Shown piece after piece: positions 1-6,674 of a DNA stretch of 64,000 bases. Position 1 is the first letter of the stretch. Each line of letters begins with the position of its first letter. Origin of the DNA: Candidatus Delongbacteria bacterium (GTDB lineage: Bacteria > UBA4055); assembly GCA_016938275.1 (NCBI GenBank), contig JAFGUZ010000204.1:9820-73819 (forward strand), written 5' to 3'. The notes under the pieces are model-generated. The model searched no databases. It saw only the letters and a list, made by a program, of their open reading frames with translations, and was not told where the DNA came from. Position numbers and translations under genes: made by a program.

Positions 1-308
1 TTCACATCTATGATAAATATTTGATTCTTACTATCTTTACCATCTGCCTTACGAATAATAGCTAAAGTTCTACCATCTGAAGACCATTTTGGTGATTGAC
101 AATTACCATCTATCTTACTTGACAACTGGGTGTGCTTTTTCTTCTTTACTTCATATAACCAAAGTTCGCTGATATATTTGTTGTCATTCCAATCGGTAGC
201 AAGTTTCTTGTATACTACCATTGTTCCATCATTATTAACAACTACTGATCCAATTTTCTCAAGTGAAATTATCTCCTCAATTGAAAAATGTTTTCTTTTT
301 ATTGTCAT
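1..308 (-). CDS. S9-family serine peptidase, N-terminal beta-propeller part (5' end only; the gene runs off the left edge)
   Basis: Not in the ORF track because there is no stop in the window. Reverse translation from ATG (rc of 306-308) gives MTIKRKHFSIEEIISLEKIG...CQSPKWSSDGRTLAIIRKADGKDSKNQIFIIDV. SPxWSxDGxxLA is the typical propeller-blade motif of acylaminoacyl/prolyl-oligopeptidase-type enzymes. AGGAG (rc of 315-319) lies 6 nt upstream of the ATG. Confidence 0.55.
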   Translation of the reverse strand, partial: MTIKRKHFSIEEIISLEKIGSVVVNNDGTMVVYKKLATDWNDNKYISELWLYEVKKKKHTQLSSKIDGNCQSPKWSSDGRTLAIIRKADGKDSKNQIFIIDV

Positions 309-364
309 ATATTTCTCCTAATATAACTGTTTGAATAATTTATAAAAGCAATGAGCGTTATTAC

Positions 365-496
365 TTGTAACGTTGAGTGTATGCGTAGTGGCGGATTTCG
401 GAACTTTTCGCTATCAAACCGAGATGGTGTTGGTGCGAGTCACAAACCTTGATATTTACTACTTACTCCGCCATTACGTATGACACATTGTTGGTG
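365..496 (-). other. attC-like imperfect palindromic recombination site (R''-L''...L'-R' layout), 3' of the DUF262 gene
   Basis: Minus-strand reading: CACCAAC-AAT-GTGT[C]ATACGTAATGGCGGA-(71 nt)-TCCGCCACTACGCATACAC-TCAAC-GTTACAA. The stem is 19 bp (plus-strand 377-395 with 467-486). It has two G-T wobbles that exist only on the plus (bottom) strand and one bulged base (G482). It starts 8 nt after the stop codon at 504-506. Confidence 0.45.
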
Positions 497-503
497 GTAG
501 TAA

Positions 504-2138
504 TTACTCAAACGAGTCATCACTTTCATTGTCTGTACTATATGGGTCATAATCAATTTCGCCTCTTATCTTAGTTGTTCCAGTCAAGTCAATAATTTCT
601 TCAGCAATTAATTGTTTTCTTTGATTAAAGAACGAATCATAATCAGAATTTTCTAAATGCTCAATACATTTTTCATCTATAAAGTGTGATTTCAATATCG
701 AGAGAAAATTGTTACTATGTGCTTTTTTGATATCGCTAACGATTTGAAGGAAATTTAATTCTTTAGTCTCTGTTCTACTACTAAATAGAATATTTACACA
801 TGATCTAGAATTCTTACTGTTAGACTCCTTATCTATAATATAGTGAAATTGATTTTTGTCAACACTTGATAATAGAGTATTGCTTTCATAAATAATGCCT
901 TCTATTAAATCAATTGGTTTTCTGTTTGCTAATAAAAGAGCAAAAGTCTTGCTATTTGCAAGATTTAATCTAAAATCATCATTAACAAAACGATCAATTG
1001 AAATCTCCTTTTCAATAGGTATTTCATCTATTTTTAATAATGCAAAATTCCGTATTAGTTCTAGATCCCTTGCATTTTGCCCTGTATTTGATGTGCCAAA
1101 ATGCCTTGAAATAGATGTTTTCCAAAACCACTGTTTTAGCTTTAGAATCTGACCCTCACTTGGTCGAGGCTGAAGATTAAAGAATTCCACCAAAAATGTC
1201 AATTGTAGACTGTATGGCAAGTATGCCGCTGTGGGTAGAAATATTTCATTGTGCAAGAACTCTATAGCGTTAATATACCCACTTGTACATTTTTCTGAAG
1301 CTAACTTTAAGTTTTCTGATGTCTCTGATCTTAAACGATCAATATTTTCTCTATTTATTCCTAACCCAGCACAGGCAGAAATATTCCTTAATATATGATT
1401 ATCCGAAATTTCAAAATAATTACGTTTCTGACATTCTCGCTTAATTTGTTCCAAAGCATCATTCAGGTCAAAATCACCTTTCCAAGTTGCAGCACGCATT
1501 AAATCAACAATTGTCAACTTTCGTCCAGTACTATTTATCCTTTCAAAAATTGGTGCTACCTCATTAATTGTCATTTCACCAATTTTAACAACGGCTATTT
1601 TATAATCTTTAATTGATCGTAATAATTTTTCTGCGTTTTTGTAGAATTTCTCTTTTTTAGGATGTGCTTCAAAGGCACTGCATTGTGAAATAAAATCACT
1701 AGTATTTAATAATTTATTCAAAGGAAAGTATTCAATCTTAAACTCATCTTTTGGATAAATAAATCGCTCCTTTTCCAAGTCAAAAGCAACATTCCAAAGA
1801 CTACGTGAATTTTTCCCATCCCAAAATAAGGTACCACATAGGCTAGAGACTCTTTGTTGTCCATCAAGCAAATAGTTAGTTGGATAAAAATCCGTCTCTA
1901 CATTTATTATTAGTTCTGCAATATTCCTTTCACTTACTAATTGTTCAGATGATTGCCATAATAGAATACTCCCTATAGGATATCCATTATAAATACTATC
2001 TAAGAGCTTAATCACTTCTTTTCTCTTCCAAACAAAAGGTCTTTGAAATTTCGGTAATCTGATGTCTCCAACTATAACACCTGTAACAATTTCTTCAATT
2101 CTTTGTATATCTGGTTTTGGGTCTTTATATTTCATCAT
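504..2138 (-). CDS. DUF262 (ParB/Srx-like, GmrSD/SspE N-terminal type) domain protein with no clear DUF1524/HNH module
   Basis: N-terminal motifs are LPKFQRPFVW, GYPIGSILLW and YLLDGQQRVSSL (the DGQQR signature of DUF262). The C-terminal half has only a weak FHYIID...VNILFSS relic where relatives carry the His-Me finger. The tail is acidic. The start overlaps the upstream gene by 14 nt. Confidence 0.75.
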   Translation of the reverse strand: MMKYKDPKPDIQRIEEIVTGVIVGDIRLPKFQRPFVWKRKEVIKLLDSIYNGYPIGSILLWQSSEQLVSERNIAELIINVETDFYPTNYLLDGQQRVSSLCGTLFWDGKNSRSLWNVAFDLEKERFIYPKDEFKIEYFPLNKLLNTSDFISQCSAFEAHPKKEKFYKNAEKLLRSIKDYKIAVVKIGEMTINEVAPIFERINSTGRKLTIVDLMRAATWKGDFDLNDALEQIKRECQKRNYFEISDNHILRNISACAGLGINRENIDRLRSETSENLKLASEKCTSGYINAIEFLHNEIFLPTAAYLPYSLQLTFLVEFFNLQPRPSEGQILKLKQWFWKTSISRHFGTSNTGQNARDLELIRNFALLKIDEIPIEKEISIDRFVNDDFRLNLANSKTFALLLANRKPIDLIEGIIYESNTLLSSVDKNQFHYIIDKESNSKNSRSCVNILFSSRTETKELNFLQIVSDIKKAHSNNFLSILKSHFIDEKCIEHLENSDYDSFFNQRKQLIAEEIIDLTGTTKIRGEIDYDPYSTDNESDDSFE

Positions 2139-3168
2139 TATCCTTTTTAAAAGTTAGAGGTTCAGTTACAACGACATTTTTATCAAAGATATCTTTGTGT
2201 CTTTTATCGAGTAAAAGCCTAGAGTTCATATTTTGAAGAATGTCATAATTGTCAATTAAATATTTGAAGTTTGGATAACCCAAATTTGGCTTATCTGAAT
2301 AGTAGTTGATAGGTGTTAAAGAGTTATAAAAAATTAGAACCAATTCATCTGTTGATAATTGAGCTCTAACAATATTGCAATAAAACTGTTTTTCTTTATC
2401 AGTTATAAGACTAGTTTTATGCACATATTTAAAAATATGGTACAAATTCCTAAAATAGTGCCCTAAATTATATTGATATAAATGAAAAAATCTTTCATAT
2501 TCGGACTTAACTATTTTCTCTTTGTCATCAATTGGTTCACTTATGAAATTTTCAATATCTTGATCTGATAAAGTCTGCAGATTCTTAATTTCTTCCTTTT
2601 CCAATTTTTCAAAGAATGAATGTTGGATGTCTCTTTTTGCTTTAAAATCAGAAACTTCGTTTGCGTCCAATTTAGTTAATGCGGAATATTTGAAGTATTT
2701 ACAATGACTTCTATATTTGAGATCTTTAATCGCACCTATAAAAAACTCTCTCTTTTCGTATGTTTCACCATCTATAGGTTTGATTTTTAGCTTATCAACA
2801 ATTTCGTTATGCAAAGAAAGTAATTGGAAAAAAGTATTCTCAAATCTTTGTTTTTTAAGAGTGTCATTTTGTTTAATAAACTCTCCTCTAGTTTCTTCTA
2901 ACTCTTCTCGTTGTAATTTTAGTTCTCTTTTTTGTAACAAAATTGTAAAAATGATACCTGCAAAAGCTAATGCAGAGAATAATGCATTGATTACACCAAA
3001 TTTGTCACCAAATAAACCTCTAGTTTCAACATCAGAGAGTTTAGAAAGATCTGTTGATACAATTTTATAGTCAATATATTGCCATGAAAAATACCAAAAT
3101 ATGACAACTAAAATAAATAAAATTAAACCAATAATTATATCTTTTGTATTTGAACTATCTGTTTTCAT
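2125..3168 (-). CDS. AbiC-like putative abortive-infection membrane protein (putAbiC family)
   Basis: Two N-terminal TM helices (IIIGLILFILVVIFWYFSW and INALFSALAFAGIIFTILLQ). The family-typical segment is GLFGDKFGVINALFSALAFAGIIFTILLQKRELKLQREELE. Later motifs are FFQLLSLHNEIV, YFRNLYHIFKYV and IVRAQLSTDELVLIFYN. The 347-aa size matches the AbiC family. Recognised from memory of the family, not by search. Confidence 0.65.
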   Translation of the reverse strand: MKTDSSNTKDIIIGLILFILVVIFWYFSWQYIDYKIVSTDLSKLSDVETRGLFGDKFGVINALFSALAFAGIIFTILLQKRELKLQREELEETRGEFIKQNDTLKKQRFENTFFQLLSLHNEIVDKLKIKPIDGETYEKREFFIGAIKDLKYRSHCKYFKYSALTKLDANEVSDFKAKRDIQHSFFEKLEKEEIKNLQTLSDQDIENFISEPIDDKEKIVKSEYERFFHLYQYNLGHYFRNLYHIFKYVHKTSLITDKEKQFYCNIVRAQLSTDELVLIFYNSLTPINYYSDKPNLGYPNFKYLIDNYDILQNMNSRLLLDKRHKDIFDKNVVVTEPLTFKKDNDEI

Positions 3169-3225
3169 TTTTATCTTCCTTTGCCATATTTAATTTATAT
3201 TTTATGTTCATTAGAATACTCTTAT

Positions 3226-3236
3226 TACCACCAACA
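3226..3236. repeat. Right arm of the 11-bp inverted repeat (partner 489-499); contains the core-site-like GTTGGTG on the minus strand
   Basis: Plus 3226-3236 taccaccaaca is the reverse complement of plus 489-499 tgttggtggta. The right arm lies 58 nt (repeat end 3226 to start codon 3168) upstream of the AbiC-like start. The left arm lies 5-15 nt downstream of the DUF262 stop. Confidence 0.6.
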
Positions 3237-3244
3237 TCTGTATT

Positions 3245-3268
3245 CCCTCCCAAATGGGAGGTATTTTT
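3245..3268 (+). terminator. GC-rich hairpin plus T-run on the plus strand (intrinsic-terminator-like, antisense to the cassette)
   Basis: Stem cctccc (3246-3251) pairs with gggagg (3256-3261) across a 4-nt loop aaat, followed by tattttt. There is no U-run on the minus strand. No plus-strand gene is annotated upstream, so the function is unclear. Confidence 0.3.
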
Positions 3269-3327
3269 CCATTAAATATTGCTGCTTATGGCGGGTAGCC
3301 GCCCAATATCGGCTTAAAAGTATCATT

Positions 3328-3612
3328 TTACTCTTCTCCTTCAATAATTAACCGATCCAAAGGATTCTTGAGCTTACCAAAAGCACTTTTAGTTACATGA
3401 TTGCAAATTTCTGTTGTTTTAGAACTTTGATCTCCTAACAATTCTTGAAAATATCTTAGATCAGTACCTTTTTCAAGTAAGTGCATATCAAATAAATGTC
3501 TAAGTGTGTGAATAGAAGCCCATCTATTTATACCAGATTCTACATACTCTGACTTCAAAGCTATTCTCTTTTCATCACTAAAAAGAATTTCACCAAACAA
3601 AATCTCTCTCAA
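3328..3612 (-). pseudogene. Tyrosine recombinase relic, IntI-like C-terminal fragment (about the last 90 aa), catalytically dead
   Basis: The sequence IHTLRHLFDMHLLEKGTDLRYFQELLGDQSSKTTEICNHVTKSAFGKLKNPLDRL matches box II of tyrosine recombinases (HxLRH...LLGH...TxIYTHV). His is replaced by Asp (LGDQ) and the nucleophile Tyr by Cys (EICNHV). The ORF opens at a TTG right after a stop, so the N-terminal two thirds are missing. The tail G..L.NPLDRL resembles integron-integrase C-termini. Confidence 0.75.
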
Positions 3613-4087
3613 AACTATATCCTATTATTCCAAATGAACAATATTATTTTAACAACTAAATCTAACTTTGTCAACGATAATTAACTTACAATTTACAACT
3701 CCAAATTGTAGCTAAATAATATTCCTTTTTTGCATACTCTTCATCATATTAGTTTTTCAAAAATAGTTTTCTTTAAAGTTTTATCAAATTTACCTCTATT
3801 TTTAAAATTTTGTATTCTGATTCTAAACCCCTTCAATAATTTGAAATTTTGATAGTAAATCAGTTCAATTACTATTTTTTTTAACAGCTTCTTTAGTTCA
3901 ATACCTACCTGATAGAGCATTCCTTAGTCGTAGTCTGCCAGCTAAAGTTTTAGCATAATCTCCAAGTTAATTTACACAATGAACTACACGGAGTTTAAAT
4001 TAAGCACCTCTACGTCGAAGCAAAGCGAAATGATTGGCGACAATTCAAACCCTAATAATTTCGTAATAATATTCACCAAAATAAAGG

Positions 4088-6295
4088 CTAAATCGGATAC
4101 TCTTTTGGTGGTATTTCGCCTAATAGATGAGTTACAAAATAATCCCACTTTTTTCTATGAACATAAGATATCCACAAACAATTATGATCAGCATTTGGTA
4201 CAATCAAGATATCAAAGTCTTTATTATACTCTATCAATTTGGCAGCCAAACGAGTTGCTTGAGTGGGCAGAACAATAGGATCAAGTTCTCCATGAATTAT
4301 ATAAAGTTTCCCTTCTAGTTTATGGCAATGTGAAATAGGAGATTGTTCTTTATAAAGCTTTTCATCATACTCTCCTAAATATATTTGTGAATACCAGTAG
4401 CAATGATTACTCCAATCATAAACACCGGAAACAGCAACTCCTACTTTATAGAAATCACCGTAATTAAACAGAGCATTTGCTGTATCAAAACCACCATGAG
4501 AAGCTCCAGTTATTCCAACTCTATCAAGATCCAGATAAGAATACTTTCGTGCAAGCTGTTTTATTGCATAGACATGATCAGGCAATCCACTATCTTTGAA
4601 GTTTTTATATGAGTGCAGGCTAAATTTCCTATTTCTCTTATTTCTTCCTCTACCATCAACCTGTATAACAATAAAACCAAGTTCTGCTAAAGCCTGAGAA
4701 TCATCTCTCCACAAACAGTCTAAAGAGGTGTGGATATATCCATGACCTCCGGTGTAACAATTATCTATTACTGGATATTTTTTATTAGGATCAAAATTTG
4801 ATGGTCTATGAATTAAACCATAAATTTTAGTTTGTTCATCACAGGCAGTTGCTTCAAATACTTCGGGCATAACAAATCCGGTTTTTTCAAGATCTTTTAG
4901 ATCAGATTCTTCTAAAAGCATCAGTTCTCTTCCATCTTTATCTCTAAGTTTGGTTATCCAGCCAAAATCCGGCAAATTATAATTGTCAATTATGTAATCA
5001 AAATTGGGAGAAAATTTAATATTGTGATCTCCTTTATCCGGTGTTAAAAGTTGTAAATTATTCCCATCAAGATCAACTTTATATAAATAGTGCAGATAAG
5101 GATTATGATCATCTTCTCGACCTCCGCAAGCTATAAAATACAATTTCCTTTTTTCTTCATCGCAATGAACAATCTCTGTTACAAAAAATTCTTTATCAGT
5201 GATTTTGTTTTTCAATTCGGCTTTTTGCGTATCATAGAGGTATAAATTACAATATCCGTCTCTTAAACTGCCCCAGATTATTTCATTACTGTTTTCTAAA
5301 ATTTTAACTATCATATTTTCAGGATCAATATACTCCTTGGAAGATTCATCAATAATATCCTTTGTAGTTTTTTCTGCATAATTGTATTCTTTCAAGATAT
5401 ATCGTTTAAAACCTTGTTTCACATCAAGATAGTATAGATAATTATTTTTTTCTAACCACAAATTCATTCCACATATATCTAGGAGCTGTTCTTTATTTAC
5501 TTTCGTTATCTTCATACTGTTAACATCCAGTAAGAAAATCTCAATAAGCGATCTATTATTGATAGCTAAAGATCTCTGCCAGCTTTTTGCTTTAGGCAAC
5601 AAACTGTCAGAAGGCATCGCCTGTACAAAAGTTATTTTTGAAGCCATTCTCATATCAATTCGTGAAAAACATAAAGTATTAGAATCACTAGACCAAGGAT
5701 GATCATAGTATTTAACTATTTCAAACACACCTTTCTTCGTAATTTCAGGCGAAGATAAATCATAACAATACTCAAAATCTTCTACACCATCATAAGTGAT
5801 TTGCCTTTCTTCTTTGGTTCTCAAGTTTCTTAAGTATAAATTATATTCTTTGGCAAAAATTTGAAATTTACCATCAGGACTGACATTTTCAAGTTGCTCT
5901 TTACTTTCATTTTTCTGTAAAGTTATAGCTAAATCAGTTAAGTTTAATTTATATTCTTTATCTTTGTAAGCGAATATAACTTCACTTCCGCAAAATGAAA
6001 TTAGAGTTAAATCCAGACTATCTGCCTCTAATGGCTTTTCTAAAAATTTGTTTAAATTTTCAGCGACTTTCTCAACATTAAAGGCTACTTGTTTAGTATT
6101 GGCTTCAACATCAATTAGCCAAAATTCTTTCTTCCCATCACGAAGATTATTTCTGTATATAAATTGATTGTTTTCTGAATTGAAGATTGGATCTACAGAG
6201 GTTTTGTAAATTCTTTTCTTCATATTTCGCCAAACAGCTTGTTCTGCTCTTTGGTAATTGGCGTATATAGGTGAAGTCTCTACCTTATTTGTCAT
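4088..6295 (-). CDS. Dipeptidyl-peptidase IV-like S9B serine peptidase
   Basis: 735 aa with a long N-terminal propeller region. The C-terminal alpha/beta hydrolase carries the nucleophile motif GITGASHGGF, Asp in IIHGELDPIV and His in NADHNC. Confidence 0.85.
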   Translation of the reverse strand: MTNKVETSPIYANYQRAEQAVWRNMKKRIYKTSVDPIFNSENNQFIYRNNLRDGKKEFWLIDVEANTKQVAFNVEKVAENLNKFLEKPLEADSLDLTLISFCGSEVIFAYKDKEYKLNLTDLAITLQKNESKEQLENVSPDGKFQIFAKEYNLYLRNLRTKEERQITYDGVEDFEYCYDLSSPEITKKGVFEIVKYYDHPWSSDSNTLCFSRIDMRMASKITFVQAMPSDSLLPKAKSWQRSLAINNRSLIEIFLLDVNSMKITKVNKEQLLDICGMNLWLEKNNYLYYLDVKQGFKRYILKEYNYAEKTTKDIIDESSKEYIDPENMIVKILENSNEIIWGSLRDGYCNLYLYDTQKAELKNKITDKEFFVTEIVHCDEEKRKLYFIACGGREDDHNPYLHYLYKVDLDGNNLQLLTPDKGDHNIKFSPNFDYIIDNYNLPDFGWITKLRDKDGRELMLLEESDLKDLEKTGFVMPEVFEATACDEQTKIYGLIHRPSNFDPNKKYPVIDNCYTGGHGYIHTSLDCLWRDDSQALAELGFIVIQVDGRGRNKRNRKFSLHSYKNFKDSGLPDHVYAIKQLARKYSYLDLDRVGITGASHGGFDTANALFNYGDFYKVGVAVSGVYDWSNHCYWYSQIYLGEYDEKLYKEQSPISHCHKLEGKLYIIHGELDPIVLPTQATRLAAKLIEYNKDFDILIVPNADHNCLWISYVHRKKWDYFVTHLLGEIPPKEYPI

Positions 6296-6414: not shown

Positions 6415-6674
6415 TTACCAAATCCAACACAATTCTGAATAAATCCCCTCTTTTGCTAGCAATTTGTTATGATTGCCAAGTTCTGCTACCTGATTGTTAT
6501 TGATAAAGCAATTTGATCAGCATTTATCAAGTTAGAAAGCCGATGTTCTATCATGATTACTGTTCGAGAACTGGCGATTTTGTTAATATCCTCCTGTGCC
6601 AGTTTTTCATTGATATTATCTAAATGGCTTGTAGTTTCGTCAATGATGATTAATTCTGGATTTTTCAAGAGCAA
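6415..6674 (-). pseudogene. ABC exporter ATPase relic (Walker B to C-terminus only, with a frameshift)
   Basis: The listed ORF gives LLKNPELIIIDETTSHLD...VIMIEHRLSNLINADQIALSI, then a stop. The normal C-terminus NNNQVAELGNHNKLLAKEGIYSELCWIW* continues in another frame (6415-6501). No Walker A, signature motif or TMD is present upstream, and the pseudo-start is a TTG directly after a stop. Confidence 0.7.

Follow-up and report, generated by a model that had tools for sequence, protein, structure and literature searches.

A recurrent pairing of an AbiC/P-type membrane protein with a nuclease-degraded DUF262 protein suggests effector replacement in a candidate anti-phage unit

We analysed a 64-kb stretch of DNA from a Candidatus Delongbacteria bacterium (hereafter the window, to whose positions all coordinates refer unless another locus is named), in which two adjacent genes of the minus strand encode an AbiC/P-family membrane protein and a BrxU/GmrSD-like DUF262 protein with a degraded His-Me finger. 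The upstream gene (gene 1, 2125-3168) encodes the membrane protein, of 347 amino acids (aa), as judged from its open reading frame (ORF), Pfam, PADLOC and an AlphaFold2 (AF2) model, and the downstream gene (gene 2, 504-2138) encodes the DUF262 protein, of 544 aa, identified through its ORF, Pfam, PADLOC and Foldseek. On the minus strand the two reading frames overlap by 14 nucleotides (nt) at 2125-2138 (ATGATGAAATATAA), an overlap that shrinks to 11 nt if gene 2 starts at its second ATG, and the two genes are presumably translationally coupled. The identical sequence is present in two assemblies, the NCBI metagenome-assembled genome (MAG) GCA_016931755.1 and an independent Logan assembly, and S9-peptidase genes flank the whole insert (about 307-4087) on both sides. 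A preliminary description, made from the letters of the window alone, had called the same two ORFs with the same overlap, and had recognised a two-transmembrane (TM) protein of the putative AbiC family upstream and, downstream, a DUF262 protein with intact FQRPFVW and DGQQR motifs and no detectable DUF1524 domain; all of these assignments were borne out by the profile searches, motif locations, hydropathy plots and structural models reported here.

The gene 1 protein matched Pfam putAbiC (PF16872) over aa 231-315 (2224-2478, minus strand) with an E-value of 1.8e-17 and 64 bits, against a cut-off of 22, and also hit the PADLOC models for AbiP (3e-11) and AbiC (5e-9). Its two TM helices, on the same strand, correspond to aa 11-29 (TM1, 3082-3138; 2.68 in a 19-residue Kyte-Doolittle window, and part of AF2 helix 6-37) and aa 59-77 (TM2, 2938-2994), and both are kept in all the homologs examined. 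TM2 and the loop preceding it carry a motif that is near-invariant in the AbiC-like family, GDxFGxxNALFSxLAFxGIIxT, within which G51, G54, D55, F57, G58, N61, L63, F64, S65, A68, G71 and T75 were invariant in our alignment. Since this motif is retained even in short prophage-borne relatives with only about 25-30% overall identity, it may have a role in the membrane beyond anchoring. In the AF2 model (predicted local distance difference test score of 85), TM2 is prolonged into a long stalk helix (46-125) that leads to a globular domain made up entirely of helices. On many prophage contigs we saw unpaired AbiC-like genes of short length (235-290 aa) in which the TM2 motif is likewise invariant. 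One viral contig from IMG/VR (L174) harboured tandem short paralogs (3929-4735 and 4748-5551), and at another locus (L087, 3767-5882) a gene of the PDDEXK_9 nuclease family is followed, after 17 nt, by a short unpaired AbiC-like gene, an arrangement that may represent another pairing of an AbiC-like protein with a nuclease.

The gene 2 protein begins with a DUF262/ParB-like NTPase domain (aa 14-217; 1488-2099, minus strand) that matched Pfam GmrSD_N (PF03235) at 4.4e-30 and contains FQRPFVW (aa 31-37), KLLDS (aa 44-48, the counterpart of RLFDS) and DGQQR (aa 92-96; 1851-1865). Over its full length the protein matched the PADLOC model PDC-M55C (1.5e-88). BrxU was its sole PDB match by sequence, through the N-terminal domain only (1.6e-13), and a Foldseek search of the PDB with its model returned only BrxU again (7p9m chains A and B; E-values of 8e-5 and 8e-4, probability 1.0, 589 aligned columns). 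GmrSD_C/DUF1524 was not found by Pfam in this protein, even at E<=10 on the isolated C-terminus. At the corresponding position, alignments and DSSP point to the relic of a DUF1524-type His-Me finger (aa ~425-465; 744-866, minus strand): the stretch NQFHYIID...VNILFSSRTE, with FHYIID at aa 431-436 and VNILFSS at 448-454, aligns with xEFHHIFP...NICxLNxxNNR in relatives, the catalytic His having become Tyr433 and the Pro an Asp, and the distal Asn (NN[RK]) having been lost. Relatives of about 50% identity from Bacillus, Clostridium, Bacteroidota and other taxa carry a C-terminal xE[FY]HH[IF]FP...N[IF]xxL...[SN]N[KR]xI, and this clear His-Me finger at the same position confirmed the earlier suspicion that FHYIID...VNILFSS is what remains of a nuclease motif. 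The HHIFP of these relatives is equivalent to the catalytic DHIYP of BrxU/GmrSD (D474/H475; PMC8565348), and the C-terminus of one standalone relative matched Pfam GmrSD_C with an E-value of 2.3e-4, just under the gathering score.

The predicted beta-beta-alpha scaffold persists in the relic, with strands at 431-433 and 450-452 and a helix at 463-473 (DSSP on the AF2 model). We found no compensated frameshift concealing an intact HNH motif in gene 2, and a frameshift artefact is not the cause of the degraded motif, as stop codons abound in both other frames. DNA cleavage by the gene 2 protein is unlikely, given the loss of the catalytic His. The protein ends in an acidic tail (…DYDPYSTDNESDDSFE; 507-566, minus strand), a trait that was enriched in, and not exclusive to, relatives encoded next to an AbiC-like gene: the mean net charge of the last 20 residues was -5.7 in paired and -1.2 in standalone proteins (Mann-Whitney U test, p=3.6e-6). 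One standalone relative with an intact His-Me motif, from Bacillus inaquosorum GCA_026795075.1 (L005, 8001-9605), lies inside an SPbeta-like prophage with YosH, YorP and a DNA methylase as neighbours, and looks like a prophage-borne type IV restriction-like gene.

The two families recur as neighbours, a point that the preliminary description had singled out for checking. Taking one genome per species, we collected 80 loci with a gene 2 relative, and an AbiC-like gene was located immediately upstream on the same strand in 11 of them (a Bacteroidota MAG, Arenibacter palladensis, Pseudomonas alabamensis, P. mangrovi, P. putida, Novilysobacter, Arsukibacterium, Herminiimonas, Variovorax, a Cellvibrionaceae MAG and Halobacteriovorax). 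In the remaining 69, AbiC-like genes were absent within 6 kb, and none of the other neighbours was conserved across the 80 DUF262 loci, the next-largest neighbour cluster comprising at most 4 loci. In the reverse direction, a DUF262 gene was found immediately downstream in 17/80 metagenomic AbiC-like loci and in 0/36 AbiC-like loci on viral contigs. Further pairs were directly verified at L003, L089, L207 and L208 and on the Klebsiella pneumoniae plasmid OW969918.1 (L209, 13052-15645), a conjugative IncFII/IncR plasmid on which both genes are annotated as 'hypothetical protein'. There were 43 non-identical pairs in all, with adjacency directly verified for 27 and inferred from shared contigs for the other 16, distributed over Bacteroidota, Pseudomonas, Xanthomonadales, Burkholderiales, Halobacteriovorax and the conjugative Klebsiella plasmid. 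The gene order was always AbiC-like followed by DUF262, the spacing ranged from -26 to +9 nt (26 pairs besides that of the window), and the pair was kept over deep divergence, down to 43-46% identity. As to individual loci, the Cellvibrionaceae copy (L077, 5019-7600) has both genes split by frameshifts, so that the module appears to be decaying there unless these are assembly errors. The Klebsiella pair lies within a few kb of a CdiA toxin gene, on its downstream side, and this version of the pair had no match in complete E. coli genomes.

Both partners bear marks of the association. In the AbiC-like proteins, an alignment revealed a pair-specific insert (aa ~160-228 of the gene 1 protein; 2485-2691, minus strand), the region comprising 69-76 residues in all 28 paired proteins and 0-47 in all 71 unpaired ones. 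Every insert carrier examined has a DUF262 partner, which suggests that this AbiC-like subclade is obligatorily paired, and the insert is a candidate docking surface for that partner. Pairwise distances of the two proteins were correlated in mirror-tree comparisons (r=0.87 overall and also within the Proteobacteria-type clade; Mantel p~5e-4). Neighbour-joining (NJ) trees of both proteins recovered two deep paired clades in common, one Bacteroidota-type and one Proteobacteria-type, with bootstraps of 100 and 99, and there is a third paired group (P0071/74/94/96).

The other mark concerns the nuclease. We compared 43 de-duplicated paired DUF262 proteins (27 of them directly verified) with 69 complete standalone ones. 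The standalone proteins kept the Glu, the Pro and both Asn of the catalytic columns in 69/69 cases and the catalytic His in 68/69, whereas the paired proteins kept the Glu in 3/43 and the His in 12/43, or in 3/27 of the verified pairs (Fisher p=2.7e-18 for His loss versus pairing, uncorrected for phylogeny). Depending on the lineage, the catalytic His of the paired proteins had been replaced by S, K, R, T, F, Y, A, N, C or D, or had been deleted, and these differing outcomes argue for several independent decay events. The mean pairwise identity of the His-Me region was 0.23-0.26 in the paired clades versus 0.56-0.57 in the standalone groups, and that of the N-terminal NTPase domain 0.71-0.83 in paired versus 0.67-0.71 in standalone proteins; DGQQR, QR..VW and LxDS were invariant in 46/46 paired and 69/69 standalone sequences. 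The comparison thus indicates that relaxed constraint is confined to the His-Me region, the NTPase domain being at least equally conserved. A paired Bacteroidota-type subclade (P0007 to P0023, L091 and L092) keeps [DE]FHH[IL][IF]P...N...DN. The label 'HNH-less' given to the downstream protein in the preliminary description consequently holds for the protein of the window and fails as a rule for the pair, since one paired subclade retains HHxxP...N...N. As this motif-retaining subclade is nonetheless paired, the partnership probably arose before the nuclease decayed.

The pair was then considered in its genomic and published context. PADLOC models were run on 127 neighbours of 19 paired loci plus 10 large neighbours, and the neighbours of those 19 loci included QatBCD, PD-Lambda-1, Avs2-like, AriA, MADS and RmrA proteins together with several PADLOC candidates. 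Directly upstream of the P. putida pair lie PD-Lambda-1 and an Mrr-like nuclease, and directly upstream of that of A. palladensis (L003, 2298-6828) an Avs2-like NTPase of 880 aa. Two small ORFs and a radical-SAM/SPASM protein come after the Avs2-like protein at this latter locus, and the group could form another uncharacterised defence cluster. The claim that the pairing is not a named system stood: as a system it is absent from PADLOC-DB v2, where the DUF262 protein matched only PDC-M55C and the AbiC-like partners only the single-gene AbiC and AbiP models, and our literature search returned no indexed paper joining DUF262 to AbiC or PF16872, and nothing for PDC-M55 or putAbiC. Surveys of DUF262 systems name GmrSD, BrxU, SspE, PD-T4-2, Dazbog and Menshen, with no AbiC or TM partner (PMC12065111, PMC10952713, PMC4619093). 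AbiC, with two TM helices, and AbiP, with one, have been grouped as 'AbiC/P' in a 2026 review which states that their mechanism is not known; both are experimentally validated phage-resistance proteins, and in AbiP the TM anchor is essential and the soluble domain binds nucleic acid (PMC13064643). The pair is therefore built from two known kinds of defence protein and is not a categorically new system, and the combination of an AbiC-like protein with a DUF262 protein that has lost its nuclease appears undescribed in searchable sources.

Taken together, we lean towards the view that genes 1 and 2 work together as a single anti-phage unit, which originated through effector replacement or hand-over. 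The observations behind it are the recurrence of the pair, its fixed order and overlap, the co-divergence of the partners, the insert confined to paired AbiC-like proteins, the loss of the nuclease motif from proteins whose NTPase domain stays conserved, and the defence-island context. This comparative evidence considerably strengthens the candidate model of the preliminary description, in which the DUF262 module controls a membrane-acting AbiC-like effector. In GmrSD, BrxU and SspE, DUF262 senses (modified) DNA and its NTPase cycle activates a fused nuclease. The ancestor of gene 2 would have been a single-gene type IV restriction enzyme of the BrxU/GmrSD type, in which a DUF262 domain, serving as NTPase and DNA sensor, was joined to a His-Me nuclease of the DUF1524 type. 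Gain of an upstream, translationally coupled AbiC/P membrane protein would have rendered the nuclease site dispensable and exposed it to repeated decay, the NTPase/sensor remaining constrained. In the present-day unit, the DUF262 protein would recognise phage nucleic acid, most plausibly modified DNA as GmrSD, BrxU and SspE do, and undergo an NTP-dependent conformational change; through the pair-specific insert of about 70 residues, the helical domain that the AbiC-like protein exposes to the cytoplasm would receive the signal, and this protein, anchored in the membrane, would execute the block or abortive infection as a membrane-acting effector. Given a conserved sensor/NTPase, a dispensable nuclease and a coupled Abi partner with its insert, effector hand-over is the most economical model; the parts of it that we infer are that the two proteins interact physically, what the trigger is, which way the signal runs and how the AbiC-like protein acts in the membrane. 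The more specific version, modification-dependent abortive infection in which a non-cutting DUF262 NTPase detects modified phage DNA and directly switches on the membrane-embedded AbiC/P effector, is put forward tentatively, as a possibility that falls somewhat short of even chances.

Several points weigh against this model. No experimental phenotype exists for any member of the pair, and the function proposed here derives from comparative sequence analysis. The analysis yielded no sign that the AbiC-like protein damages membranes, and its AF2 model had no Foldseek match below E=0.3 in the PDB or in BFVD, so that no function could be transferred from structure. For the gene 2 protein, the AF2 model is confident for residues 220-525 only and poor for the N-terminal domain. 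A paired subclade of 10 sequences keeps the H/N/N residues and may still cut DNA, and the partner is therefore not a strict replacement of the nuclease. Shared ancestry inflates the contingency statistics, and co-divergence is equally expected for any co-travelling genes. Joint monophyly of the main paired clades was unsupported in the NJ tree of either protein (bootstrap 18% and 0%), and we therefore do not claim a single origin of pairing. Finally, signalling could run in the opposite direction, with the AbiC-like protein itself as sensor, because lactococcal AbiC and AbiP work as single genes.

This last point leads to the main rival, which we regard as having a real though clearly minor chance of being right. 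Roles would be reversed or toxin-antitoxin-like: the AbiC/P-like protein would be a self-sufficient sensor-effector, and the nuclease-dead DUF262 protein would act as its restraint or antitoxin, or as an NTPase that binds DNA, is recruited to the membrane and blocks phage DNA without cleavage. AbiC and AbiP do confer resistance as single genes in Lactococcus, the soluble domain of AbiP is a nucleic-acid binder, AbiP presumably requires a phage protein for activation (PMC13064643), short AbiC-like proteins are common without a DUF262 partner, including on prophage contigs, and the AbiC-like gene comes first in the operon; more speculatively, the acidic tail of the paired DUF262 proteins could mimic nucleic acid in a binding groove of the partner. 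However, all characterised systems (GmrSD, BrxU, SspE) use DUF262 for sensing and NTPase activity, the higher conservation of the N-terminal domain in paired than in standalone proteins fits a retained sensor, and a partner that supplies the output is the simplest account of the repeated loss of the nuclease.

It is considerably less probable that two independent single-gene defence genes merely travel together, functionally uncoupled. Defence genes do cluster in islands, both families occur as single genes, and co-inheritance alone predicts co-divergence, but such a history would not account for the fixed order and the narrow spacing (-26 to +9 nt) in pairs across phyla, for an insert found in 28/28 paired and 0/71 unpaired AbiC-like proteins, for a catalytic His kept in 68/69 standalone versus 12/43 paired proteins, or for the lack of any other recurring neighbour. 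That gene 2 is a decaying, functionless type IV restriction remnant next to an unrelated Abi gene seems very improbable: its active site is degraded, both genes are frameshifted at L077 and the unit of the window adjoins a dead recombinase, yet the ORF of gene 2 is full length and free of stops, the NTPase motifs are invariant in 46/46 sequences with an N-terminal identity of 0.83 within its clade, the C-terminal helices past the relic can still be aligned, and the pair persists down to 43-46% identity. We give equally little credence to a non-defence role as a membrane-tethered ParB/Srx-superfamily NTPase for DNA segregation or mobile-element maintenance, suggested by the place of DUF262 within the ParB NTPase superfamily and by the occurrence of the pair on a conjugative plasmid and on a probable cassette, since the full-length architecture and fold match BrxU/GmrSD, the partner comes from a validated Abi family, and the neighbours are defence genes, with no parS-like sequence or partition partner gene among them.

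The effector hand-over model can also be set against the systems that most resemble the pair. Like BrxU and GmrSD (PDB 7P9K and 7P9M; Eco94GmrSD), the gene 2 protein has an N-terminal DUF262 domain with an RLFDS-like motif (KLLDS) and DGQQR, a helical middle region and a C-terminal beta-beta-alpha module, and its standalone relatives keep HHIFP...N...N, the equivalent of DHIYP; unlike them, it has Tyr for the catalytic His, Asp for the Pro and no distal Asn. BrxU and GmrSD, moreover, act as single polypeptides, whereas gene 2 belongs to an overlapping operon with a membrane-protein gene. The gene 1 protein shares with lactococcal AbiC and AbiP the putAbiC domain, an all-helical extra-membrane domain without a detectable enzymatic fold and, as in AbiC, a two-TM N-terminal anchor; it differs in its weak matches to the PADLOC models (34-42 bits), in its insert of about 70 residues and in being, apparently obligatorily, paired with a DUF262 gene, AbiC and AbiP being single-gene systems. 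In Menshen (NsnABC), Dazbog and PD-T4-2, too, a DUF262 protein without an active nuclease is accompanied by a separately encoded effector, but the partners there are ATPase/nuclease or other soluble proteins and not an AbiC/P membrane protein. Unlike the DUF262 proteins of those systems, that of the window retains the whole GmrSD-like scaffold, including the dead His-Me module, and it gave only a weak local PADLOC match to PD-T4-2_A (4e-5 over 31 residues) and none to the Menshen or Dazbog (Nsn, Dzb) models.

With PDC-M55, an uncharacterised PADLOC candidate, the likeness is limited to its third component: PDC-M55C matched paired and standalone DUF262 relatives alike at 257-307 bits, a level that indicates a sister subfamily, and PDC-M55A and PDC-M55B had no match among the AbiC-like partners, the 127 neighbours of the 19 paired loci or the 10 large neighbours. 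The swapping of a nuclease output for a membrane protein is a known theme in cyclic-oligonucleotide-based anti-phage signalling systems (CBASS), Pycsar and type III CRISPR, an example being the TM effector Cam1. Unlike in those systems, second-messenger machinery is absent from the pair of the window, and coupling would therefore be protein-to-protein.

Should modification-dependent activation prove true, it would open a first mechanistic view of the activation and action of the AbiC/P family, known for 30 years, and the repeated, independent decay of the His-Me site after gain of the partner would amount to a natural experiment, an effector hand-over in progress with the HHxxP-retaining subclade as an intermediate. 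The gradient from intact to deleted active sites offers unusually clear comparative evidence for effector replacement. If the pair is functional, it adds a widespread two-gene defence system (Bacteroidota, Pseudomonas, a conjugative Klebsiella plasmid), indicates that the output of a DUF262 sensor can change from cutting DNA to a membrane-anchored effector, and provides a tractable entry to AbiC/P biology, with a defined upstream activator and a candidate interface.

In the window, the pair is carried by a unit that had been called 'cassette-like', an apt term in view of its anatomy, which resembles that of an integron cassette, with an attC-like site and an inverted boundary repeat. The attC-like site (132 nt; 365-496, minus strand), delineated by single-stranded DNA (ssDNA) and RNA folding, consists of an R'' core CACCAAC (496-490), an imperfect palindrome of about 110 nt and an R' core GTTACAA (371-365), and the upstream cassette boundary (3222-3236, minus strand) of a core-like GTTGGTG (3235-3229) and GTAATAA. 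A repeat search showed that a 14/15 inverted repeat (3222-3236 and 489-503) brackets exactly the two genes, and none of 60 flank shuffles reached 14/15. Flanking repeats in 21 other paired loci were at chance level, none being comparable. The downstream arm reads CACCAAC, palindrome and then GTTACAA·GTAATAA, and the upstream arm GTTGGTG·GTAATAA. When the junction of a circular cassette was reconstituted, the resulting 132-nt site folded as ssDNA with a 15-bp R box separated by a short unpaired stretch, the spacer, from a long L stem; the stem has a bulged base, and the fold includes a variable loop. The bottom strand reached -26.9 kcal/mol (z=-5.2) versus -17.7 for the linear form. The site is unique within the window and the fetched loci, and its length falls within the attC range of 57-141 nt. 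An Rfam scan of 1-4400 returned nothing, and the 3' hairpin therefore belongs to none of the known RNA families.

Upstream of the pair lies a C-terminal tyrosine recombinase fragment of 94 aa (3328-3612, minus strand), corroborating the recombinase relic reported in the preliminary description. It matched Pfam Phage_integrase (7.6e-8), and its best NCBIfam hit was the integron integrase TIGR02249 (4.9e-17), aligned over positions 245-315 of the 315 in the model; this hit fell far short of the cut-off, and XerD was almost equal (7e-15). The position of the catalytic Tyr is occupied by Cys (EICNH), the region of the IntI-specific additional domain is missing, and no further recombinase fragments were found upstream of the relic. 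We conclude that the two-gene unit is a probable integron gene cassette beside a dead recombinase that resembles integron integrases, rated as probable rather than established because the attC-like cores agree with the RYYYAAC/GTTRRRY consensus only at AAC/GTT. A reading of the flanking repeats as those of a transposon or a miniature inverted-repeat transposable element was dropped, because neither a transposase nor a target duplication is present and an attC site accounts for more. Defence systems have been documented as integron cassettes (bioRxiv 10.1101/2024.07.02.601686), although the window contains a lone cassette-like unit beside the dead recombinase and not an array. Enrichment of integron-type integrase domains in the vicinity of GmrSD genes has also been described (PMC4619093).

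Some other features of the region were noted. A candidate sigma-70-like promoter, TTGACA-17-TAAAAT with a TG (3646-3674, minus strand; 11/12 matches to the consensus, on which its identification rests), is situated 5' of the recombinase relic and the pair. Two short GC-rich hairpins (3246-3261, CCTCCCAAATGGGAGG, and 3285-3300, GGGCGGCTACCCGCC) lie between the relic and the cassette boundary, the former with a terminator score on the plus strand. A 62-aa ORF at 6486-6674 (minus strand) resembles the C-terminal end of an ATP-binding cassette transporter ATPase (…IIIDETTSHLD…) and is probably a gene fragment. Beyond the left end of the window, on the same contig (L001, 16600-21632), a Pol-beta-type nucleotidyltransferase gene is followed by two tandem UvrA-like genes, all of them downstream of the second S9 peptidase.

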